64,000 nt of DNA, from positions 64,741-128,740 of the forward strand of contig JBBTQS010000001.1 in assembly GCA_038065555.1 (NCBI GenBank), written 5' to 3'. Below are positions 18,837 through 26,269 of the stretch, piece after piece. Made by a program: the position numbers and the translations under genes. The stretch is from Patescibacteria group bacterium. GTDB taxonomy: Bacteria > Patescibacteriota > Patescibacteriia > Magasanikbacterales > JBBTQS01. A model generated the notes under the pieces. It did no database searches. It had not been told where the DNA came from and saw only the letters and a list, made by a program, of their open reading frames with translations. Numbering within the stretch: the first letter of the stretch is position 1; each line of letters starts with the position of its first letter.

Positions 18837-18907
18837 TCCGGGATCGTCTAATGGTAGGACATCGCCCTTTGGAGGCGAGTATCTTGGTTCGAATCCAAGT
18901 CCCGGAG
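18837..18907 (+). tRNA. tRNA-Gln (anticodon TTG), CCA not encoded
   Basis: TCCGGGA..TCGCCCTTTGGAGGCGA..GGTTCGAATCCAAG TCCCGGA G; U1:A72 as in bacterial tRNA-Gln. Confidence 0.85.
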
Positions 18908-18947
18908 CACATTCGAGATAAGCTTGAGTCTGAAACACAAAATTTCT

Positions 18948-20239: not shown

Positions 20240-20323
20240 TATAGACGTTTTTACAAAGAGTTTATGAACCACACCTTCTGGCTCGCAAGGAAAGATAGCG
20301 TTGAGTATTGAAAGGTAAAACGA

Positions 20324-20362
20324 AGACCCACACCGATCGTACGAAGGGTGTGGGTCTTTGTT
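20324..20362. terminator. bidirectional rho-independent terminator
   Basis: agacccacacc / ggtgtgggtct stem flanked by a T-run. Confidence 0.6.
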
Positions 20363-20374
20363 GTGTTGATGCCG

Positions 20375-21670
20375 TTACGCGTTCTTCTTGGCTCGAGAGG
20401 TCTCCTTGTGCCCATCGACAAGTTTCTGGAACTCGTCGATGGGGAAGTGGATACCGTGGCGACCGCAGAATTCTGAGAGGAGATCTTCTGGGATCCCCAG
20501 CTCAGATTTCAAGGTGAAGGCATGGGTGGCGCTGATCTCCTGTGCCGCAGCGATCTTGTCGAGGTGTTTCTTGCTGCGTTGCAGCACACGCACGAAGCTG
20601 TCGCGTTCCGATTGGATCCAGCCGTTGACAGCTGATTCGTGACGGAGCGTGAGTTCGCGATTGTCGATTGCGACGCAGAGCGAATGCACCCAGCCTGTGA
20701 GAGCCGTGAGCTCGACTCCGTGGAGTTGTGCTCCGATCATCGTTCGTCTGAGAGCTCTGCGAAGCAGATACCCCTCCCGAACGTTGCTTGGAACCACCCC
20801 TTCCCGGATCATCAGGATTGCCGTCTTCAGATGATCGAGGATGATTCGGCTCCACCTCGTGTCACCAACGCTCTCCTGGATGAGTCGGAAGGAGGTGGAG
20901 TACTGATCGATTTCGTGGATCGACGCGCGATCCTGCAGGATCATCGAGAATCGTTCCATCCCCGCGCCCGTGTCTACGCACTTCATGGGGAGATTGGTGA
21001 TAGCACCGTTCTCGTCCTTGAAGTATTGCATGAAGACGCCAGCGTTCCAGATCTCGATGTGTCGACCGGGAACGAGCACATCATCCGTTTCTTTCTCGGC
21101 GAAGGATTCGCCTCGATCGAAGAAGACTTCGGTGCACGGACCGCACGGACCGCTCGTTCCGGCGGGTCCCCAGAAGTTGTCCTCCGGAGGGCGGCCGATG
21201 ATGTGGTCGCGAGGGAGGAAGCGTTCCCAGATGCGTGCGGACTCTTCGTCGCTGGGCACACCAGGGAGGCTGTCGTCGGCATTGAACACGGTCGCGTACA
21301 AGCGATCCGCAGGAATGCCGAACTCTCCAGTGATGAGCTCGAATGCGAGTTCGATCGCTCGCTCCTTGAAGTAGTCACCGAATGACCACGAACCCATCAT
21401 TCGGAAACTCGTACCATGGTAGGAGTCTCCGACACTCTCGAAGTCCACGAAGCGGATGCAATCCTGGACGTTGGTGAGGCGTGGGTAGGGTGGTGTGGCC
21501 TGCCCTGTGAAGTAGGGCTTCATAGGGGCCATGCCGGAGTTGATGAACATCAGGGTAGGATCGTCCTTCGGCATGATGCCAGAGGGCGATATATACCGGT
21601 GTTCGCGATTAAGGAAATGCTCCAGGAAGGTCTGGCGCACCTCCTCGGCCGTTTTGTATGGTAATTTCAA
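20375..21670 (-). CDS. alaS: alanine--tRNA ligase N-terminal fragment (aminoacylation and tRNA-recognition domains only; no editing or C-Ala domain)
   Basis: AlaRS signatures TAEEVRQTFLEHF, DPTLMFINSGM, SFRMMGSWSFGDYFK, FWGPAGTSGPCGPCTEVFFD, EIWNAGVFMQYF, VDTGAGMERF, GVVPSNVREGYLLRRALRR; start chosen at TTG 21670 with a GAGGAGG RBS (ORF track extends to 21736). Confidence 0.8.
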   Translation of the reverse strand: MKLPYKTAEEVRQTFLEHFLNREHRYISPSGIMPKDDPTLMFINSGMAPMKPYFTGQATPPYPRLTNVQDCIRFVDFESVGDSYHGTSFRMMGSWSFGDYFKERAIELAFELITGEFGIPADRLYATVFNADDSLPGVPSDEESARIWERFLPRDHIIGRPPEDNFWGPAGTSGPCGPCTEVFFDRGESFAEKETDDVLVPGRHIEIWNAGVFMQYFKDENGAITNLPMKCVDTGAGMERFSMILQDRASIHEIDQYSTSFRLIQESVGDTRWSRIILDHLKTAILMIREGVVPSNVREGYLLRRALRRTMIGAQLHGVELTALTGWVHSLCVAIDNRELTLRHESAVNGWIQSERDSFVRVLQRSKKHLDKIAAAQEISATHAFTLKSELGIPEDLLSEFCGRHGIHFPIDEFQKLVDGHKETSRAKKNA

Positions 21671-21743
21671 AGAAGCCTCCTCTTTGAGGGGTTGAAGAGC
21701 GTGAGGAACGATATAGTATTTTTTGTTTTTTGGCAAGAGGTTG

Positions 21744-21772
21744 TTGACGTTGTTACTCTTCTGCGCTAGATT
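21744..21772 (+). promoter_or_regulatory. sigma70-like promoter TTGACG-17-TAGATT for the AKR-rSAM-alaS2 operon
   Basis: -35/-10 pair with 17 nt spacer in the AT-rich divergent intergenic region; AGGAGG RBS before ATG 21816. Confidence 0.4.
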
Positions 21773-21815
21773 TTATTGGGTTCGTTCGTTAAAAATACAA
21801 GATTTAGGAGGGGGT

Positions 21816-22556
21816 ATGGAATGGTTTGAAAGGCTCTACTTTGGCACGTGGCAGCTGGGTGGGGGTCAGTTTAGAGCGTTGTCGGAGTATCAGAAGGAGA
21901 GACTCCTGAGTGCTGCAATCATTGCGGGTATCTGTCGCTTTGACACCGCTGCTGTGTATGGAGGAGGGGCCGTGGAGGAACTCCTTGGTCGCCATCTGCA
22001 ACAGCAAGCGGTGATTGTGACTAAGATTCCTGCAATTAGAAAGCCAAATCCGGAAAAGCAGGAGCCCATTAACGAGTTCTACCCGACCGATCACATGCGT
22101 CGGTGTGTCATGAATTCGTTGGATCGACTGAGGAGGGCGCAAGTAGACACCATCTTGTTGCATAATTGGTCGCCATCATGGGCGGTCGGTGCACAAGATG
22201 TGTTGGATTGCCTGAACAGCATGAAGCAGGAAGGCCTCACACGGAGAATTGGCATTTCGTTGCCCAATGACTTTGGATTCCAATCGGGCGCGCGCCTCTT
22301 TCCGTGGATGGATGTGGTAGAGATGCCATATAACCCGGAACAGGCATGGGCACGAAAGCTACTTCCTGCGATGCAAGGATGTGGTGTAGAAGTCTTGCTG
22401 AGAAGTCTGTTTGGGCAAGGGCGCTTTCTTACGACTGACACCGCTGAATCGTTGATCGCGAATGCAGGTGAACTTGGAACGTCTGTGGTCATCGGTATGA
22501 CCACAGAGGAGCAGATCAAACGAAACATCAACTGTCTCAAAAGAGGTGCGCAATGA
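21816..22556 (+). CDS. aldo/keto reductase
   Basis: AKR N-terminus (LYFGTWQLGGG...FDTAAVYGGG); stop overlaps the rSAM start (ATGA). Confidence 0.7.
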   Translation: MEWFERLYFGTWQLGGGQFRALSEYQKERLLSAAIIAGICRFDTAAVYGGGAVEELLGRHLQQQAVIVTKIPAIRKPNPEKQEPINEFYPTDHMRRCVMNSLDRLRRAQVDTILLHNWSPSWAVGAQDVLDCLNSMKQEGLTRRIGISLPNDFGFQSGARLFPWMDVVEMPYNPEQAWARKLLPAMQGCGVEVLLRSLFGQGRFLTTDTAESLIANAGELGTSVVIGMTTEEQIKRNINCLKRGAQ

Positions 22557-23764
22557 ACTATTTCGACGCTGCAAACACAGAAACATTCGTCACTGTGCCT
22601 GGAATGACGACTGGTCGAGAATTCGCACTGCGGGAATACTCGTATGGAGTGCTGGTACCTGACAAGAACCATCCGCTCTCCTGTGTGAGTGTTTCGAACA
22701 GCTCGCTCAGTATAGATCTCTGGGTCGGTTGTGCGTGGCAGTGTCGCTATTGCCATGTGCAGGGTACGAACCAAGACCTGGCTGAGCAAGGAACAATGCC
22801 TCGTAGACCCCGTCTACGCACTGCATTCACGATCGGGCAGATCGTCGATGCGTTGGTGGAGCATCCGTTCTTCGTGGCGGATGTCTCTGTCATCAGTATC
22901 GGAACCGCCAGTACTGAACCGTTCGCACCGGCGATTGTAGACAGTACATTCGACATCATGAACGAGTTCGTGCGACGTGGACTGCGCAATCCATTCTGGA
23001 TCGTGACCAAAGGCGGGATTCCGAAGGGGAGAAAGGTGGATTTCGCCCGCATCGTAAGTGCATCACGCGGACTCATGATCTCACTCTGTTGGGCTGGTAA
23101 CCCAAAGGAGATCGAGCCGATGCGCAATAACCGCTTCCTCAACGTTGAGGAAGCAAAGGAGGCTGGTGCGACAATCGCCTGGTACCTCCGGCCAATCGTG
23201 CCGGAGTGGTCTGGGAGTTCGGAACACATTGACATGATGATGCTGTGGGTCAAACAACACTACAGCGGCATCATTGATATGATCGTTCCGGGCGGACTTC
23301 GGTGGACTGAGGGTATCGAGAATGGCCTGGTGGAGATTCACAAACTCGCCATGCCAGACATTTCTCGTGGAGATAACGAGAAATCACTGCCTCAGGAGCT
23401 GGTGGATTCCATCTTCGCACTGAGTGGTCAGTACTTCCCGGGCGTCCCCGTGTACCTCAAGTCTTCCTGTGCGCTCACACATATGCTCAAGATTCCGAGC
23501 ATTACATCAGTGCACGCGTTCGCGAGAGCTGAGTGTGAAGCATCGCGATGTCCAGCCGAACAGCGCAGGATCTGCGCAAAGGGTGCTGCCTACGATATGA
23601 CGGTTGAGAAAGCTCAGGACATTCTCCGTCGTCTCGGTGTACCTGCTCGTGTGCTGGGGTGGGATGGTACGGGTGGTCTCATCACATCCCCGGCACTGAG
23701 CGAGTTCGCGTACGCTATCAGGCAGACGATCTTCAAAAGCTTGGCTGAAGGAGGTGCCGCATGA
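22553..23764 (+). CDS. radical SAM protein (SPL/COG1533-like)
   Basis: CxxxCxxC cluster GCAWQCRYCHV at residues 60-67; 4-nt ATGA overlaps at both ends. Confidence 0.7.
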   Translation: MNYFDAANTETFVTVPGMTTGREFALREYSYGVLVPDKNHPLSCVSVSNSSLSIDLWVGCAWQCRYCHVQGTNQDLAEQGTMPRRPRLRTAFTIGQIVDALVEHPFFVADVSVISIGTASTEPFAPAIVDSTFDIMNEFVRRGLRNPFWIVTKGGIPKGRKVDFARIVSASRGLMISLCWAGNPKEIEPMRNNRFLNVEEAKEAGATIAWYLRPIVPEWSGSSEHIDMMMLWVKQHYSGIIDMIVPGGLRWTEGIENGLVEIHKLAMPDISRGDNEKSLPQELVDSIFALSGQYFPGVPVYLKSSCALTHMLKIPSITSVHAFARAECEASRCPAEQRRICAKGAAYDMTVEKAQDILRRLGVPARVLGWDGTGGLITSPALSEFAYAIRQTIFKSLAEGGAA

Positions 23765-24885
23765 TCAACCGTGAGCAGATCAAGCGCTTTTTCGAACATC
23801 ACGGCTTCGTGTGGCGAGAAGGTGCTTCGATCACGAGCAGCAACTATAAATTGCTGTTCAACATTTCGGGCGGTGTGGTGTATGAGAGGATTATCTCGGG
23901 CAGAGAACGACCCGAAGTATCCAGAGTTGCATCCGTGCAAACCTGTCTAAGAACAGATGGGTGGAATCGGATCGGTCATTCTGGAAAGCATCACCTCGCC
24001 TTTGAAATGCTCGGTCATTTCTCTTTCTACGAAGGCAATGAAGCCGATGTGAAAGAGAGGATGATCGGAAGTGCGTGGCGATATCTGACAGAATGTCTAG
24101 GTATCAACCAAGACACACTGTTCGCAACAGTGCATCCGCAAGACAGTACGTCGCAACGGATTTGGAGTAATTTGGGGGTAGAGACAAGTGAAAACGCTTG
24201 TAATACCACCTATACTCCATGCAAAAACCGATGTGGTGTGCGAACAGAAATCGTCTGGCGAAATCCAACTACAGGGAACATCGTGGAGCTCTGGAACTTG
24301 GTTTTCACTGAGTTCCAGGGTCAAACGCTCTTCGAATTTCCCTTGGACAGGATAGCTGCCGACTCTGGCGCGAGTATCGATCGGCTCGTTACTGCCGTTG
24401 AAGGTAAGTCGAGCGATTACGATAACTCAAATTGGGTCGACATCATCGGCTCTATCGAGGCGCAGTCGAATGCTCCGGACCGGATATTGGTGTGTCGACT
24501 GGCAGATATGGGTAAGGCGTCGGTACTTCTCGTGGAGCAAGGCCTTCGGCCGGGGAACAAGGCTGCGGAGTATGTGCTTCGGAGGATCATCCGAGAAGCA
24601 TATCTTCTTTGCAAGCAGGTACAGATTCCCTTCGAGGTATTTGTCAAACTTGCGAGCAGTCGCTGGTGTCCAACCCCAGCAATGTCAGAGGTTTTTGTGC
24701 AGGAAGCAACTAGATTCGATTCTGCACTGCGGCGCGGCATGGCAGAATACCGAAAAACAGTTCTCCGTGCACAAGGACCTTTGTCTCACGAAACCATCAA
24801 GCAACTCTCGGCAACGTTTGGGCTTCCGGAAGCACTCATTGTAGTGGAGGAGTCCAAGCGTGCTATACGAGGTGACCATGAGTAG
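23761..24885 (+). CDS. divergent AlaRS catalytic-domain paralog (374 aa)
   Basis: collinear with AlaRS motifs but drifted: EQIKRFFEHHGF, KHHLAFEMLGHFSFYEG, PCKNRCGVRTEIVW, ELWNLVFTEFQ, EYVLRRIIREA. Confidence 0.65.
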   Translation: MINREQIKRFFEHHGFVWREGASITSSNYKLLFNISGGVVYERIISGRERPEVSRVASVQTCLRTDGWNRIGHSGKHHLAFEMLGHFSFYEGNEADVKERMIGSAWRYLTECLGINQDTLFATVHPQDSTSQRIWSNLGVETSENACNTTYTPCKNRCGVRTEIVWRNPTTGNIVELWNLVFTEFQGQTLFEFPLDRIAADSGASIDRLVTAVEGKSSDYDNSNWVDIIGSIEAQSNAPDRILVCRLADMGKASVLLVEQGLRPGNKAAEYVLRRIIREAYLLCKQVQIPFEVFVKLASSRWCPTPAMSEVFVQEATRFDSALRRGMAEYRKTVLRAQGPLSHETIKQLSATFGLPEALIVVEESKRAIRGDHE

Positions 24886-25633
24886 TATTGCTCATGAAAT
24901 AACCCGTGTTTTGCAGCCCCTCGCAGGCTTGAACGCGGTGTTGCATGTTGGCCTGGATCGGAACGTATCACATGGTAGGGTTGATCTCTTAGCAGGTTGT
25001 GTTGACGGCGATATCAAACGGTACGCAATCGATATAATTTGTCTGCTAAAGAGCTGGGACCCATCCGGAGAGTTTTCTGTCTGCGATGACAGTGTACGGT
25101 TTGATACATCGGCTGGGACAGGTGGGGTCGCGGTGTGCGATCCAATTGCCCTTGTTGAAGGTATCAGCGGCTGGATCGAAGGAAGAATGCTCAGTGGGCA
25201 AAGACGTTCGTGGGCCGTCGGGTATTGGTTACCTGAAGCATTGTGCGGGGACCTGGCTACAGCCAGTGTGCTTCATGATGCTACGGGTATAGCAGATCGG
25301 GTTTGTCAACTCGTATCACCATATCCAGAGAAGCTCTCGAATAGTATTGTTCAGTGGTGTTCTGAAGAGATCAGGTTGAAGTTAGTAACACTTCGTTCAC
25401 TGTCACAAGCAGTAGCGTTGGTGGAACACCGGCTTTGCCTGGCGGACATTGCTGCGGCACTCGTGAGGTTGGCATTCGCTCGGGGACGACGCTACCTGCG
25501 TGGATTTCGGTCTCTCGAACAACAAGTTGTGTTCCTGTCACCAGCCGATCGGGCAGTCTATGATCTGGCATCTGAGCTCTTGCTCGGATCGACGGCAGAA
25601 TCGACGATTGAACGGGTCAGGAGCGTGATTTAG
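24860..25633 (+). CDS. hypothetical protein (last gene of the operon)
   Basis: overlaps the preceding gene by 26 nt; no clear family. Confidence 0.4.
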   Translation: MLYEVTMSSIAHEITRVLQPLAGLNAVLHVGLDRNVSHGRVDLLAGCVDGDIKRYAIDIICLLKSWDPSGEFSVCDDSVRFDTSAGTGGVAVCDPIALVEGISGWIEGRMLSGQRRSWAVGYWLPEALCGDLATASVLHDATGIADRVCQLVSPYPEKLSNSIVQWCSEEIRLKLVTLRSLSQAVALVEHRLCLADIAAALVRLAFARGRRYLRGFRSLEQQVVFLSPADRAVYDLASELLLGSTAESTIERVRSVI

Positions 25634-25663: not shown

Positions 25664-26269
25664 TTATTTTAGGAGTGTTTTTCCGTTCGCATCAATAATG
25701 ATCGCTTCTGAATTTCGTATACGATCAATAACCACATTGTGTTTTAGTTCAAATGCGCGAGCAGCGTCCTCAAGTGCGGGGGTGTAATGTGGAAGCGGTG
25801 TGTTTGGGATGATACAAAGCCCTGTAAAGTCAGTAAGGTTCATCTCGATGGGGTCTGAGAGTATTTCACCGGCAACTGCAATCGATGGTCCGAGGATGAT
25901 ACTTCCAGCACTTACACCTATATACATTCCACCACGATCTAGAAGTGATACGATCGATGTGCGGAAATTTGATGACCGTGCAAAAGCGAGTAGTCGGTAG
26001 GTATTTCCACCGCTTACATAAATAACATCGTAGTTTGTGAGGTCTGCTACTGGTTCGGATGCAAGATCGACAAAATCAACAGTACAAAATTTGAGCGATT
26101 GAAATTGTGACTTTGCTCGCTCAGAGTATTTACCATGGTCTGGCCCTTCTGCAGTTGTTATGATTGCAACAGAGGGGGTTTGATGGTTGGAAAACGTGTG
26201 TTGAACCGCAAAAAAAGTATGACCCTGCGTCAGTCCTGTCGAAGTGAGTATGATCTTTCCGTGGTTCAT
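25664..26269 (-). CDS. peptidase S51 (dipeptidase E/cyanophycinase-like)
   Basis: VIYVSGGNTYRLL and IGVSAGSII serine-nucleophile block. Confidence 0.6.
   Translation of the reverse strand: MNHGKIILTSTGLTQGHTFFAVQHTFSNHQTPSVAIITTAEGPDHGKYSERAKSQFQSLKFCTVDFVDLASEPVADLTNYDVIYVSGGNTYRLLAFARSSNFRTSIVSLLDRGGMYIGVSAGSIILGPSIAVAGEILSDPIEMNLTDFTGLCIIPNTPLPHYTPALEDAARAFELKHNVVIDRIRNSEAIIIDANGKTLLK

Follow-up and report, generated by a model that had tools for sequence, protein, structure and literature searches.

The closest described parallel to the gene considered here comes from the ascamycin cluster, in which acmD (an 871-aa alanyl-tRNA synthetase, AlaRS), acmE (a hydrolase) and acmF (a 370-aa AlaRS-like protein) lie together (PMC4257720). 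AcmF consists only of the aminoacylation and tRNA-recognition domains, uses in vitro the Ala-tRNAAla produced by AcmD and moves alanine onto the sulfamate nitrogen of a nucleoside (PMC12945691). In an AlphaFold 3 model of AcmF the nucleoside occupies what used to be the adenylate site, where the equivalents of R69, E209 and N212 (Gln in AcmF) are proposed to hold it, and the alanyl amine is placed at the equivalent of D235 (Glu in AcmF); AcmF has N219Q and D232E and was reported to be without most ATP-binding residues (PMC12945691). Here we analysed AlaL, an AlaRS-like paralogue encoded in a 64,000-nt stretch of DNA (the window) from a Patescibacteria bacterium (GCA_038065555.1), for which a preliminary description had proposed neofunctionalisation rather than decay.

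In the window AlaL belongs to a group of six genes: a truncated canonical-type AlaRS on the minus strand; an aldo-keto reductase (AKR), a radical S-adenosylmethionine enzyme resembling spore photoproduct lyase (SPL-like rSAM), AlaL and a nucleotidyltransferase-like protein (NTase) on the plus strand; and an S51 serine peptidase on the minus strand. Tentatively, we favour the reading that AlaL carries out an AcmF-like, Ala-tRNA-dependent transfer of alanine onto a nucleoside- or nucleotide-like acceptor in a mobile six-gene module, because the two proteins are alike in size and architecture, both have an AlaRS and an aminoacyl-cleaving hydrolase as partners, and the key residues are conserved. 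We infer along the following lines that the reaction depends on tRNA, what kind of acceptor it uses, what each partner does and that an aminoacyl-nucleoside results. The co-encoded, editing-less AlaRS would charge tRNAAla, the retained tRNA-recognition domain of AlaL would bind the acceptor end of the Ala-tRNA, and the former ATP/adenylate pocket would hold the acceptor. AlaL would then pass the alanyl group to this acceptor in the manner of AcmF. The acceptor itself would be built by the rSAM, the AKR and the NTase, which is of the ANT type, and the S51 peptidase, or an MccF-like S66 peptidase in its place, would take the aminoacyl group off again, for self-protection or activation.

The AlaL family and its active site

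Homology of AlaL to AlaRS is far above chance, and AlaL is a member of the PF01411 superfamily. The protein matched Pfam PF01411 (tRNA-synt_2c) with an E-value of 1.3e-42 and 146.5 bits over profile positions 8-401 of 552, above the gathering threshold of 30.3 bits, and the AlaRS catalytic fragments of the PDB with E-values of 2e-29 to 5e-22. Against the alaS equivalog TIGR00344 it scored 151.1 bits (profile positions 8-400 of 847), below the curated cut-off of 457 bits. Profile-profile comparison (hhalign) of the AlaL family with canonical AlaRS, a check proposed in the preliminary description, gave a probability of 100% and an E-value of 6e-65 over 368 collinear columns. The collinearity with the AlaRS catalytic core stated there was confirmed and is wider than described, since the match spans both the aminoacylation domain and the helical tRNA-recognition domain, after which the protein ends at residue 374. 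Pfam searches of AlaL matched only PF01411, with no editing (tRNA_SAD) or C-Ala (DHHA1) domain, and no editing domain was found elsewhere within the window. The motifs quoted earlier, HHLAFEMLGHFSFYEG, PCKNRCGVRTEI and ELWNLVFTEFQ, are all present in the translation. The open reading frame (ORF) is intact and translationally coupled, as had been stated: its start overlaps the rSAM stop as ATGA, with GGAGG 8 nt upstream, and its end shares 8 nt with the next gene, which begins at ATG 24878. A database protein identical to AlaL carries the name 'alanine--tRNA ligase-related protein'. Measured by four marks of a canonical AlaRS, AlaL departs in three (score, editing and C-Ala domains, pocket residues) and agrees in the fourth, the adenylate and backbone residues.

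A family search covering 5.8 billion proteins yielded about 95 clusters of AlaL homologues (clustered at 90% identity), 350-395 aa long, 33-62% identical and scoring 206-517 bits, with a sharp gap to canonical AlaRS, which reached at most 128 bits. Loci of the family were obtained from GTDB species representatives (20) and from metagenomes (30). The motifs PKLLFNISGGV, SxQxCLRTD, GxSGRHHxxFxMLGHF, RTEIxW, ELWNLVFTQF, ADSGASxxR and PGNKxxYxLRK are invariant or nearly so, and nowhere is the family more conserved than in the altered motifs. Among close orthologues the dN/dS of AlaL was 0.09-0.28, compared with 0.05-0.12 for the neighbouring rSAM gene and 0.04-0.08 for the neighbouring AlaRS. AlaL is 24% identical to the neighbouring AlaRS and 30% identical to another AlaRS (P0116) of the candidate phyla radiation (CPR). 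A recent tandem duplication of the first AlaRS was ruled out, because the identity is only 24% and AlaL is closer to P0116.

The score of 151 bits, far under the alaS equivalog cut-off, and the absence of the hallmark AlaRS motifs might be taken as marks of a functionless, decaying duplicate of alaS, and one homologue (L021) is indeed broken into two ORFs. We give this explanation practically no weight, since the ORF is intact and coupled and AlaL is distant from the adjoining AlaRS, and it is already refuted by the breadth of the family, the fixed motifs, a dN/dS of about 0.1 and the conserved gene partners. The preliminary description had allowed that no orthologues with the drifted motifs might exist, which would indicate a recent pseudogenising duplication; about 95 clusters keep these motifs and, together with the dN/dS that it had suggested computing, they support its proposal of neofunctionalisation. 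Of the two outcomes raised there, activation of another amino acid and transfer to a non-tRNA acceptor, the latter may be the more apt, having an experimental precedent in AcmF (PMC12945691) and agreeing with the gene context. AlaL is under purifying selection and, to judge from its sequence, is an old lineage, an anciently diverged and functional AlaRS paralogue.

Alignment of 31 AlaL-family members with 28 canonical AlaRS, covering all columns at least 90% conserved in the canonical set, revealed which parts of the active site are kept, switched or lost (E. coli AlaRS numbering was checked against the 3hxu coordinates). Residues R64 (=R69), H77, F81, E163, E176 (=E209), W178, N179 (=N212), V181 (=V214), D201 (=D235), G203 (=G237) and R208 (the motif-3 Arg) are invariant in the AlaL family. 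Fixed switches comprise AGM to SGG, FSFGDY to FSFY, DTGxG to DSGAS, Gln to Glu at 214, Asp to Ser at 223 and Arg to Lys at 275. Relaxed positions are Trp170 (T, F, S or H instead), the GPCGP loop, which now carries Arg or Lys, and NEGRG; Trp170, the GPCGP loop and the AGM of motif 1 are 100% conserved across the 28 canonical AlaRS. In AlaRS, Asp235 is assigned to the alpha-amino group and Arg69 to the carbonyl, and Val214 and Trp170 form a steric wall around the C-beta that excludes D-amino acids and larger side chains (PMC10123102). From these published roles and the column comparison, the adenylate and backbone apparatus appears intact and the side next to the alanyl carbon opened; the losses of Trp170, the GPCGP loop and AGM look like big-to-small changes that open the AlaL pocket. 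The earlier view that adenylate features are retained and specificity determinants altered was thus borne out column by column. The short motif-2 loop (RTDGWNRIG versus the reference RAGGKHNDLENVG), which had been counted as drift, does not belong to it, because the same loop occurs in most of the aligned canonical AlaRS.

The tRNA-recognition domain is also retained. Its PxN..Y.LR..R helix is kept, N266 (=N303, the acceptor-stem reader) is 87% conserved in the family without being invariant, and the domain is slightly basic (net charge +2). The ratio of conservation between the tRNA-recognition and catalytic domains was 0.69 in the AlaL family and 0.77 in canonical AlaRS, and the relative constraint on the domain is accordingly about that of a real AlaRS.

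A different reading of the same residues is that AlaL is still an ATP-dependent, adenylate-forming enzyme whose enlarged pocket no longer serves L-alanine but admits an amino acid that is bulkier, of D-configuration or non-proteinogenic, or else an acid supplied by the rSAM and AKR. The acceptor would be a small molecule or, less likely, a tRNA, and the neighbouring AlaRS would be a copy resistant to an AlaRS-inhibiting product. We regard this as the main rival, somewhat less likely than the AcmF-like transfer. The adenylate residues R64, E163, E176, N179, D201, G203 and R208 are all invariant, as it would expect, and the changes are concentrated in the pocket lining (loss of Trp170, AGM to SGG, a basic residue in the GPCGP loop, DTGxG to DSGAS), where Trp170 and Val214 normally keep out D-amino acids and larger side chains (PMC10123102). 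However, selection on the tRNA-recognition domain is left unexplained if the acceptor is not a tRNA and, if it is one, no dedicated tRNA or downstream transferase using aminoacyl-tRNA was found in 22 AlaL loci.

The gene module and its mobility

For gene context, counts were taken over the 19 distinct loci in which AlaL is flanked by at least 4 kb on either side; their ORFs were searched with the window proteins. The rSAM was present in 18 of the 19 loci, the AKR and the NTase-like protein in 17 each, and an S51 or S66 peptidase likewise in 17 (16 by BLAST and L112 by Pfam). This gene set holds through at least six gene orders. Besides the window type, the AKR and AlaRS are shifted downstream of S51 in L007, L088 and L099; the AlaRS follows S51 on the plus strand in L011; the order AlaRS-AKR-rSAM-NTase is convergent with AlaL in Saccharibacteria (L022-L024); L105 and L112 have AlaL-S51-NTase-rSAM-AKR; and an order of AlaRS, NTase::AKR fusion, rSAM, S66 and AlaL is found in low-GC gut metagenome-assembled genomes (MAGs; L019). 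The NTase-like domain is fused to the AKR N-terminus (about 490 aa) in L012, L015, L017, L018 and L019 (e.g. L019 2205-3674), and it can be argued from this fusion that NTase and AKR act on the same substrate. The fusion occurs in low-GC gut MAGs, whose recorded labels are Bacilli, Clostridia or Muribaculaceae.

The module is accessory and horizontally mobile. No flanking gene was common to the window and any other AlaL locus. Module GC was 0.47-0.52 in the high-identity CPR-type loci and fell to 0.43 in L014, which is more divergent; the GC of the flanks ranged from 0.36 to 0.59 (module versus flank 0.47 vs 0.36 in L005, 0.50 vs 0.37 in L008 and 0.49 vs 0.59 in L009). AlaL is 90-92% identical among L007, L008 and L009, with dS of 0.16-0.34, in MAGs labelled as different candidate phyla. 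The uncoupling of GC from the flanks (seen in L005, L006, L008, L009 and L024), the lack of shared flanking genes and the high AlaL identity together indicate recent horizontal transfer of the whole module.

No convincing integration-site repeats and no flanking direct repeats were found around the window module. Genes for tRNA lie just outside the module in the window (18837-18908, Gln), L006 (4193-4264, Gln) and L009 (6318-6392, Arg), and may be integration hot-spots. In L112 (5541-15835) the module stands amid genes of mobile-element type, coding for a NERD nuclease, an HTH-SocA/Panacea antitoxin and a PIF1-like helicase, and a peptidase-MA-like gene follows the AKR. In the Saccharibacteria loci L022 and L023 (13123-14409) a Mur-ligase-family gene directly adjoins the module AlaRS; it could serve ordinary cell-wall synthesis or be an extra amino-acid ligase of the pathway. 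Signs of occasional decay of the module were also observed. In L021 (8091-9005) AlaL is in two ORFs beside an intact S66 gene, in L016 (6630-7070) the rSAM gene is reduced to a 146-aa remnant, and L003 and L020 retain just the MccF-like S66 and AlaL.

AlaL might also be a true synthetase charging tRNA with a non-proteinogenic amino acid that the rSAM, reductase and NTase enzymes produce. Since recognition by AlaRS depends on the acceptor stem and not on the anticodon, such a cassette, mobile among CPR bacteria, would resemble the pyrrolysine system ('make it and charge it'), and it would amount to an expansion of the genetic code or a new tRNA-dependent modification of the cell envelope. We consider this very improbable. 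ARAGORN searches of 22 AlaL loci detected only ordinary, non-conserved tRNAs and no dedicated suppressor-type (Pyl-like) tRNA, on which ground a Pyl-like cassette with such a tRNA was rejected. Rfam gave only 4 tRNAs in the window.

The positions of the module features in the window are given in Table 1.

Table 1. Features of the AlaL module, with positions in the window
Feature	Position	Strand	Description
Inverted repeat I1 (hairpin)	20319-20362		22 nt; just past the AlaRS stop, between convergent genes
Truncated canonical-type AlaRS	20375-21670 (ORF extends to 21736)	-	431 aa from likely TTG 21670
Divergent intergenic region	21671-21816		between the AlaRS gene and the AKR-rSAM-AlaL-NTase operon
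Aldo-keto reductase (AKR)	21817-22556	+	245 aa; ATG 21817 after GGAGGGGG Shine-Dalgarno
SPL-like radical-SAM enzyme (rSAM)	22553-23764	+	403 aa; CxxxCxxC at C60/C64/C67
AlaL	23761-24885	+	374 aa, ATG start; AlaRS-like paralogue, aminoacylation-like and tRNA-recognition-like domains
Nucleotidyltransferase-like protein (NTase)	24878-25633	+	251 aa; ANT(4')/LinB fold, DUF4037-like C-terminal domain
S51 serine peptidase	25664-26269	-	convergent with the operon; Pfam Peptidase_S51 E 1.6e-26

Hairpin I1 is likely a boundary of the module and a terminator. The divergent intergenic region contains promoter-like hexamers on the plus strand (21744-21772) and the minus strand (21736-21708); their number is not above chance, and their positions alone are suggestive. 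The AKR matched Pfam Aldo_ket_red with an E-value of 7.7e-29, its start being inferred from the sequence and the lengths of orthologues, and its last 4 nt are shared with the start of the rSAM gene. Long antisense ORFs run across the AlaRS gene (20639-21385, plus strand) and the rSAM gene (22747-23253, minus strand); they seem conserved in other loci because the sense genes are strongly conserved, and no extra genes are implied.

The rSAM and NTase were assigned by predicted fold, because sequence searches gave no name: profile searches of these two proteins against PDB sequences had no match and Pfam gave only weak ones. The SPL-like rSAM has further invariant Cys residues at 179, 306, 328, 333 and 341. 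The NTase, whose true start is ATG 24878, was modelled by AlphaFold 2 with a pLDDT of 87.8. Its top Foldseek matches were the kanamycin nucleotidyltransferase ANT(4') (6nmk/1kan, E 8e-6, TM 0.54) and the lincosamide nucleotidyltransferase LinB, and its weak Pfam matches were to DUF4037 and NTP_transf_2. The fused gut-type forms keep GSx10DxD, and D36 and D70/D71 are invariant in the CPR-type forms.

These folds leave some room for a module acting on tRNA or another nucleic acid, in which AlaL would be a subunit binding acceptor stems of the tRNAAla type and targeting the rSAM and NTase to a tRNA for modification or repair. The DNA-acting spore photoproduct lyase is the closest fold of the rSAM, the Pol-beta-type NTases include the tRNA CCA-adding enzymes, which appeared as weak Foldseek matches, the acceptor-stem helix and its Asn303 equivalent are still present in AlaL, and an AlaRS often stands in the same operon. 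It is improbable all the same, since the best NTase matches are aminoglycoside and lincosamide nucleotidyltransferases, with tRNA NTases scoring far lower, the MccF-like/S51 peptidase and the AKR have no obvious role on tRNA, and the invariant catalytic residues of AlaL are unexpected for a pure targeting subunit.

The PDB relatives of the S51 peptidase are Lmo0363 and PepE. In gut-type modules this peptidase is replaced by an MccF-like S66 peptidase, which scored 135 bits to the MccF-like protein of B. anthracis, 105 bits to E. coli MccF and 28-61 bits to murein LD-carboxypeptidases. MccF-type S66 enzymes cleave mimics of aminoacyl-adenylates, and MccF is an immunity enzyme (PMC8323819). AlaL could on this basis be a non-catalytic decoy, immunity or sensor protein that binds alanyl-adenylate mimics or uncharged tRNAAla and, with the peptidase, detoxifies an external inhibitor of aminoacyl-tRNA synthetases (aaRS), the module being a resistance island and not a biosynthetic one. 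The minimal S66 and AlaL pair of some gut MAGs, accompanied by the rSAM remnant in L016, would suit such a function, as would the mobility of the module and the ANT-type NTases, which are classic antibiotic-modifying enzymes. We nevertheless assign it a low probability, because rSAM and AKR enzymes, here conserved in 17-18 of the 19 loci, belong more typically to biosynthetic pathways and the invariant catalytic constellation of AlaL points to chemistry beyond binding. A PADLOC search for anti-phage defence gave no match for any module protein, and an anti-phage defence system was rejected.

The partner AlaRS

Three points go beyond the preliminary description: the conserved mobile module, the retained tRNA-recognition domain of AlaL, and the first AlaRS being itself accessory and truncated. 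This AlaRS scored 340 bits against its Pfam profile (positions 1-433 of 552) and has the catalytic and tRNA-recognition domains only. A GAGGAGG Shine-Dalgarno sequence precedes its TTG start, and orthologues begin MKLPYKT. The equivalents of R69, W170, N212, V214, D235 and G237 are kept. The otherwise invariant FFEMLGNF reads SFRMMGSW (the Glu being replaced by Arg, Asn or His across orthologues), and IWN-VF carries a two-residue AG insertion. The close truncated representatives returned by an exhaustive search with the truncated AlaRS numbered only three (419-433 aa, 44-48% identity) and were followed by AlaRS of about 870 aa (39-45%); forms of about 580-600 aa, including the one CPR AlaRS compared, ranked lower. 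As a tiny clade nearest to the AlaRS of about 870 aa, it looks like a module-specific, accessory copy and not a general CPR enzyme.

A partner AlaRS is co-located with AlaL in 12 of the 19 well-flanked loci, and it is the first gene of the operon in L019, L022 and L110. In L110 (415-6957) the AlaRS is full-length (895 aa, with catalytic, tRNA_SAD and DHHA1 domains). It immediately precedes AKR-rSAM-AlaL-NTase on the same strand, with a gap of 23 bp, and this operon is the closest architectural parallel to acmD/acmF.

The truncated AlaRS is probably a supplier of Ala-tRNA, analogous to AcmD, or a resistant copy. The second role belongs with the reading of AlaL as an adenylate-forming enzyme for another substrate, and the odd substitutions of the CPR-type truncated AlaRS (SFRMMGSW, AG insertion) could give resistance; moreover, immunity is a frequent function of aaRS copies found in gene clusters (PMC8323819, PMC5388404). 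The partner AlaRS of L019 and L110, on the other hand, have fully canonical motifs, which fit a resistance role poorly.

Comparison with known systems

Several observations weigh against an AcmF-like transfer by AlaL. At the N212 and D235 positions, where AcmF carries Gln and Glu, AlaL keeps the Asn and the Asp, and it also keeps the motif-3 Arg and both conserved Glu. The loss of alanine-activation residues seen in AcmF is not found in AlaL (N179, D201, R208, E163 and E176 are invariant), and since AlaL has kept these residues, unlike AcmF, it may still form the adenylate itself. The distance from the motif-2 Arg to the stacking Phe is 17 residues in AlaL and 11 in AcmF (published numbering), a difference in spacing that suggests independent origins of the two proteins. 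On the side of the partners, spore photoproduct lyase acts on DNA and not on small molecules; the CPR-type NTase is without the first Asp of the DxD metal-binding motif (Lys or Arg instead) and, by its sequence, may be inactive or have an altered chemistry; no AlaRS partner was found within 8 kb in 7 of the 19 loci; and the surroundings of the module contain no conserved exporter gene or other gene typical of antibiotic clusters.

No description of the AlaL family or its module was found in the literature. AlaRS is regarded as being among the aaRS families least prone to paralogy (PMC5388404). Against this background stands a whole conserved family of AlaRS paralogues, tied to a six-enzyme module that is spreading among CPR/Patescibacteria and some low-GC gut MAGs. 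To our knowledge, AcmF, from a single Streptomyces pathway, is the only characterised paralogue of the AlaRS catalytic domain, and CPR bacteria are thought to have almost no secondary metabolism. What appears to be new here is the combination of enzymes and the range of hosts in which putative transferases on an AlaRS scaffold occur together with an AlaRS. Should the product of the module be an aminoacyl-nucleoside, such as a Trojan-horse aaRS inhibitor, it would be a rare predicted pathway for a bioactive compound in episymbiotic CPR bacteria.

Compared with canonical AlaRS, AlaL has the same fold and domain order as the fragments AlaRS441 of E. coli and AlaRS453 of A. aeolicus (PDB 3hxu, 1riq). 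It shares R69, E209, N212, V214, D235, G237 and the motif-3 Arg with the canonical N-terminal fragment at 23-30% identity, while Trp170, the GPCGPC loop, AGM, FSFGDY and NEGRG are lost or replaced. The transferase SbzA (IleRS-like and aminoacyl-tRNA-dependent) and the immunity aaRS AgnB2 and AbmK likewise place an aaRS scaffold in an accessory cluster with a second aaRS nearby (PMC12945691, PMC8323819); however, they belong to another aaRS class or family than AlaL, and none is paired with its enzyme set.

The likeness to AcmF, drawn from its published description (size, residues, numbering), is closer. AcmF (370 aa) and AlaL (374 aa) both consist of aminoacylation-like and tRNA-recognition domains only, both keep the R69 and E209 equivalents, and both stand beside a canonical-type AlaRS and a hydrolase, which is the alpha/beta-hydrolase AcmE in one case and an S51 or S66 peptidase in the other. 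Radical-SAM genes occur in both the acm cluster and the AlaL module. AcmF is without both residues that read G3:U70, of which AlaL keeps the Asn. The remaining partners also differ, as AlaL is accompanied by the SPL-like rSAM, AKR, ANT-like NTase and S51/S66 peptidase and AcmF by sulfate-activation and sulfatase genes, and so do the hosts, with AlaL in CPR bacteria and low-GC gut MAGs and AcmF in Streptomyces. Were an aminoacyl-nucleoside indeed made by the module, AlaL would be a second, independent case of tRNA-dependent chemistry on the AlaRS scaffold.

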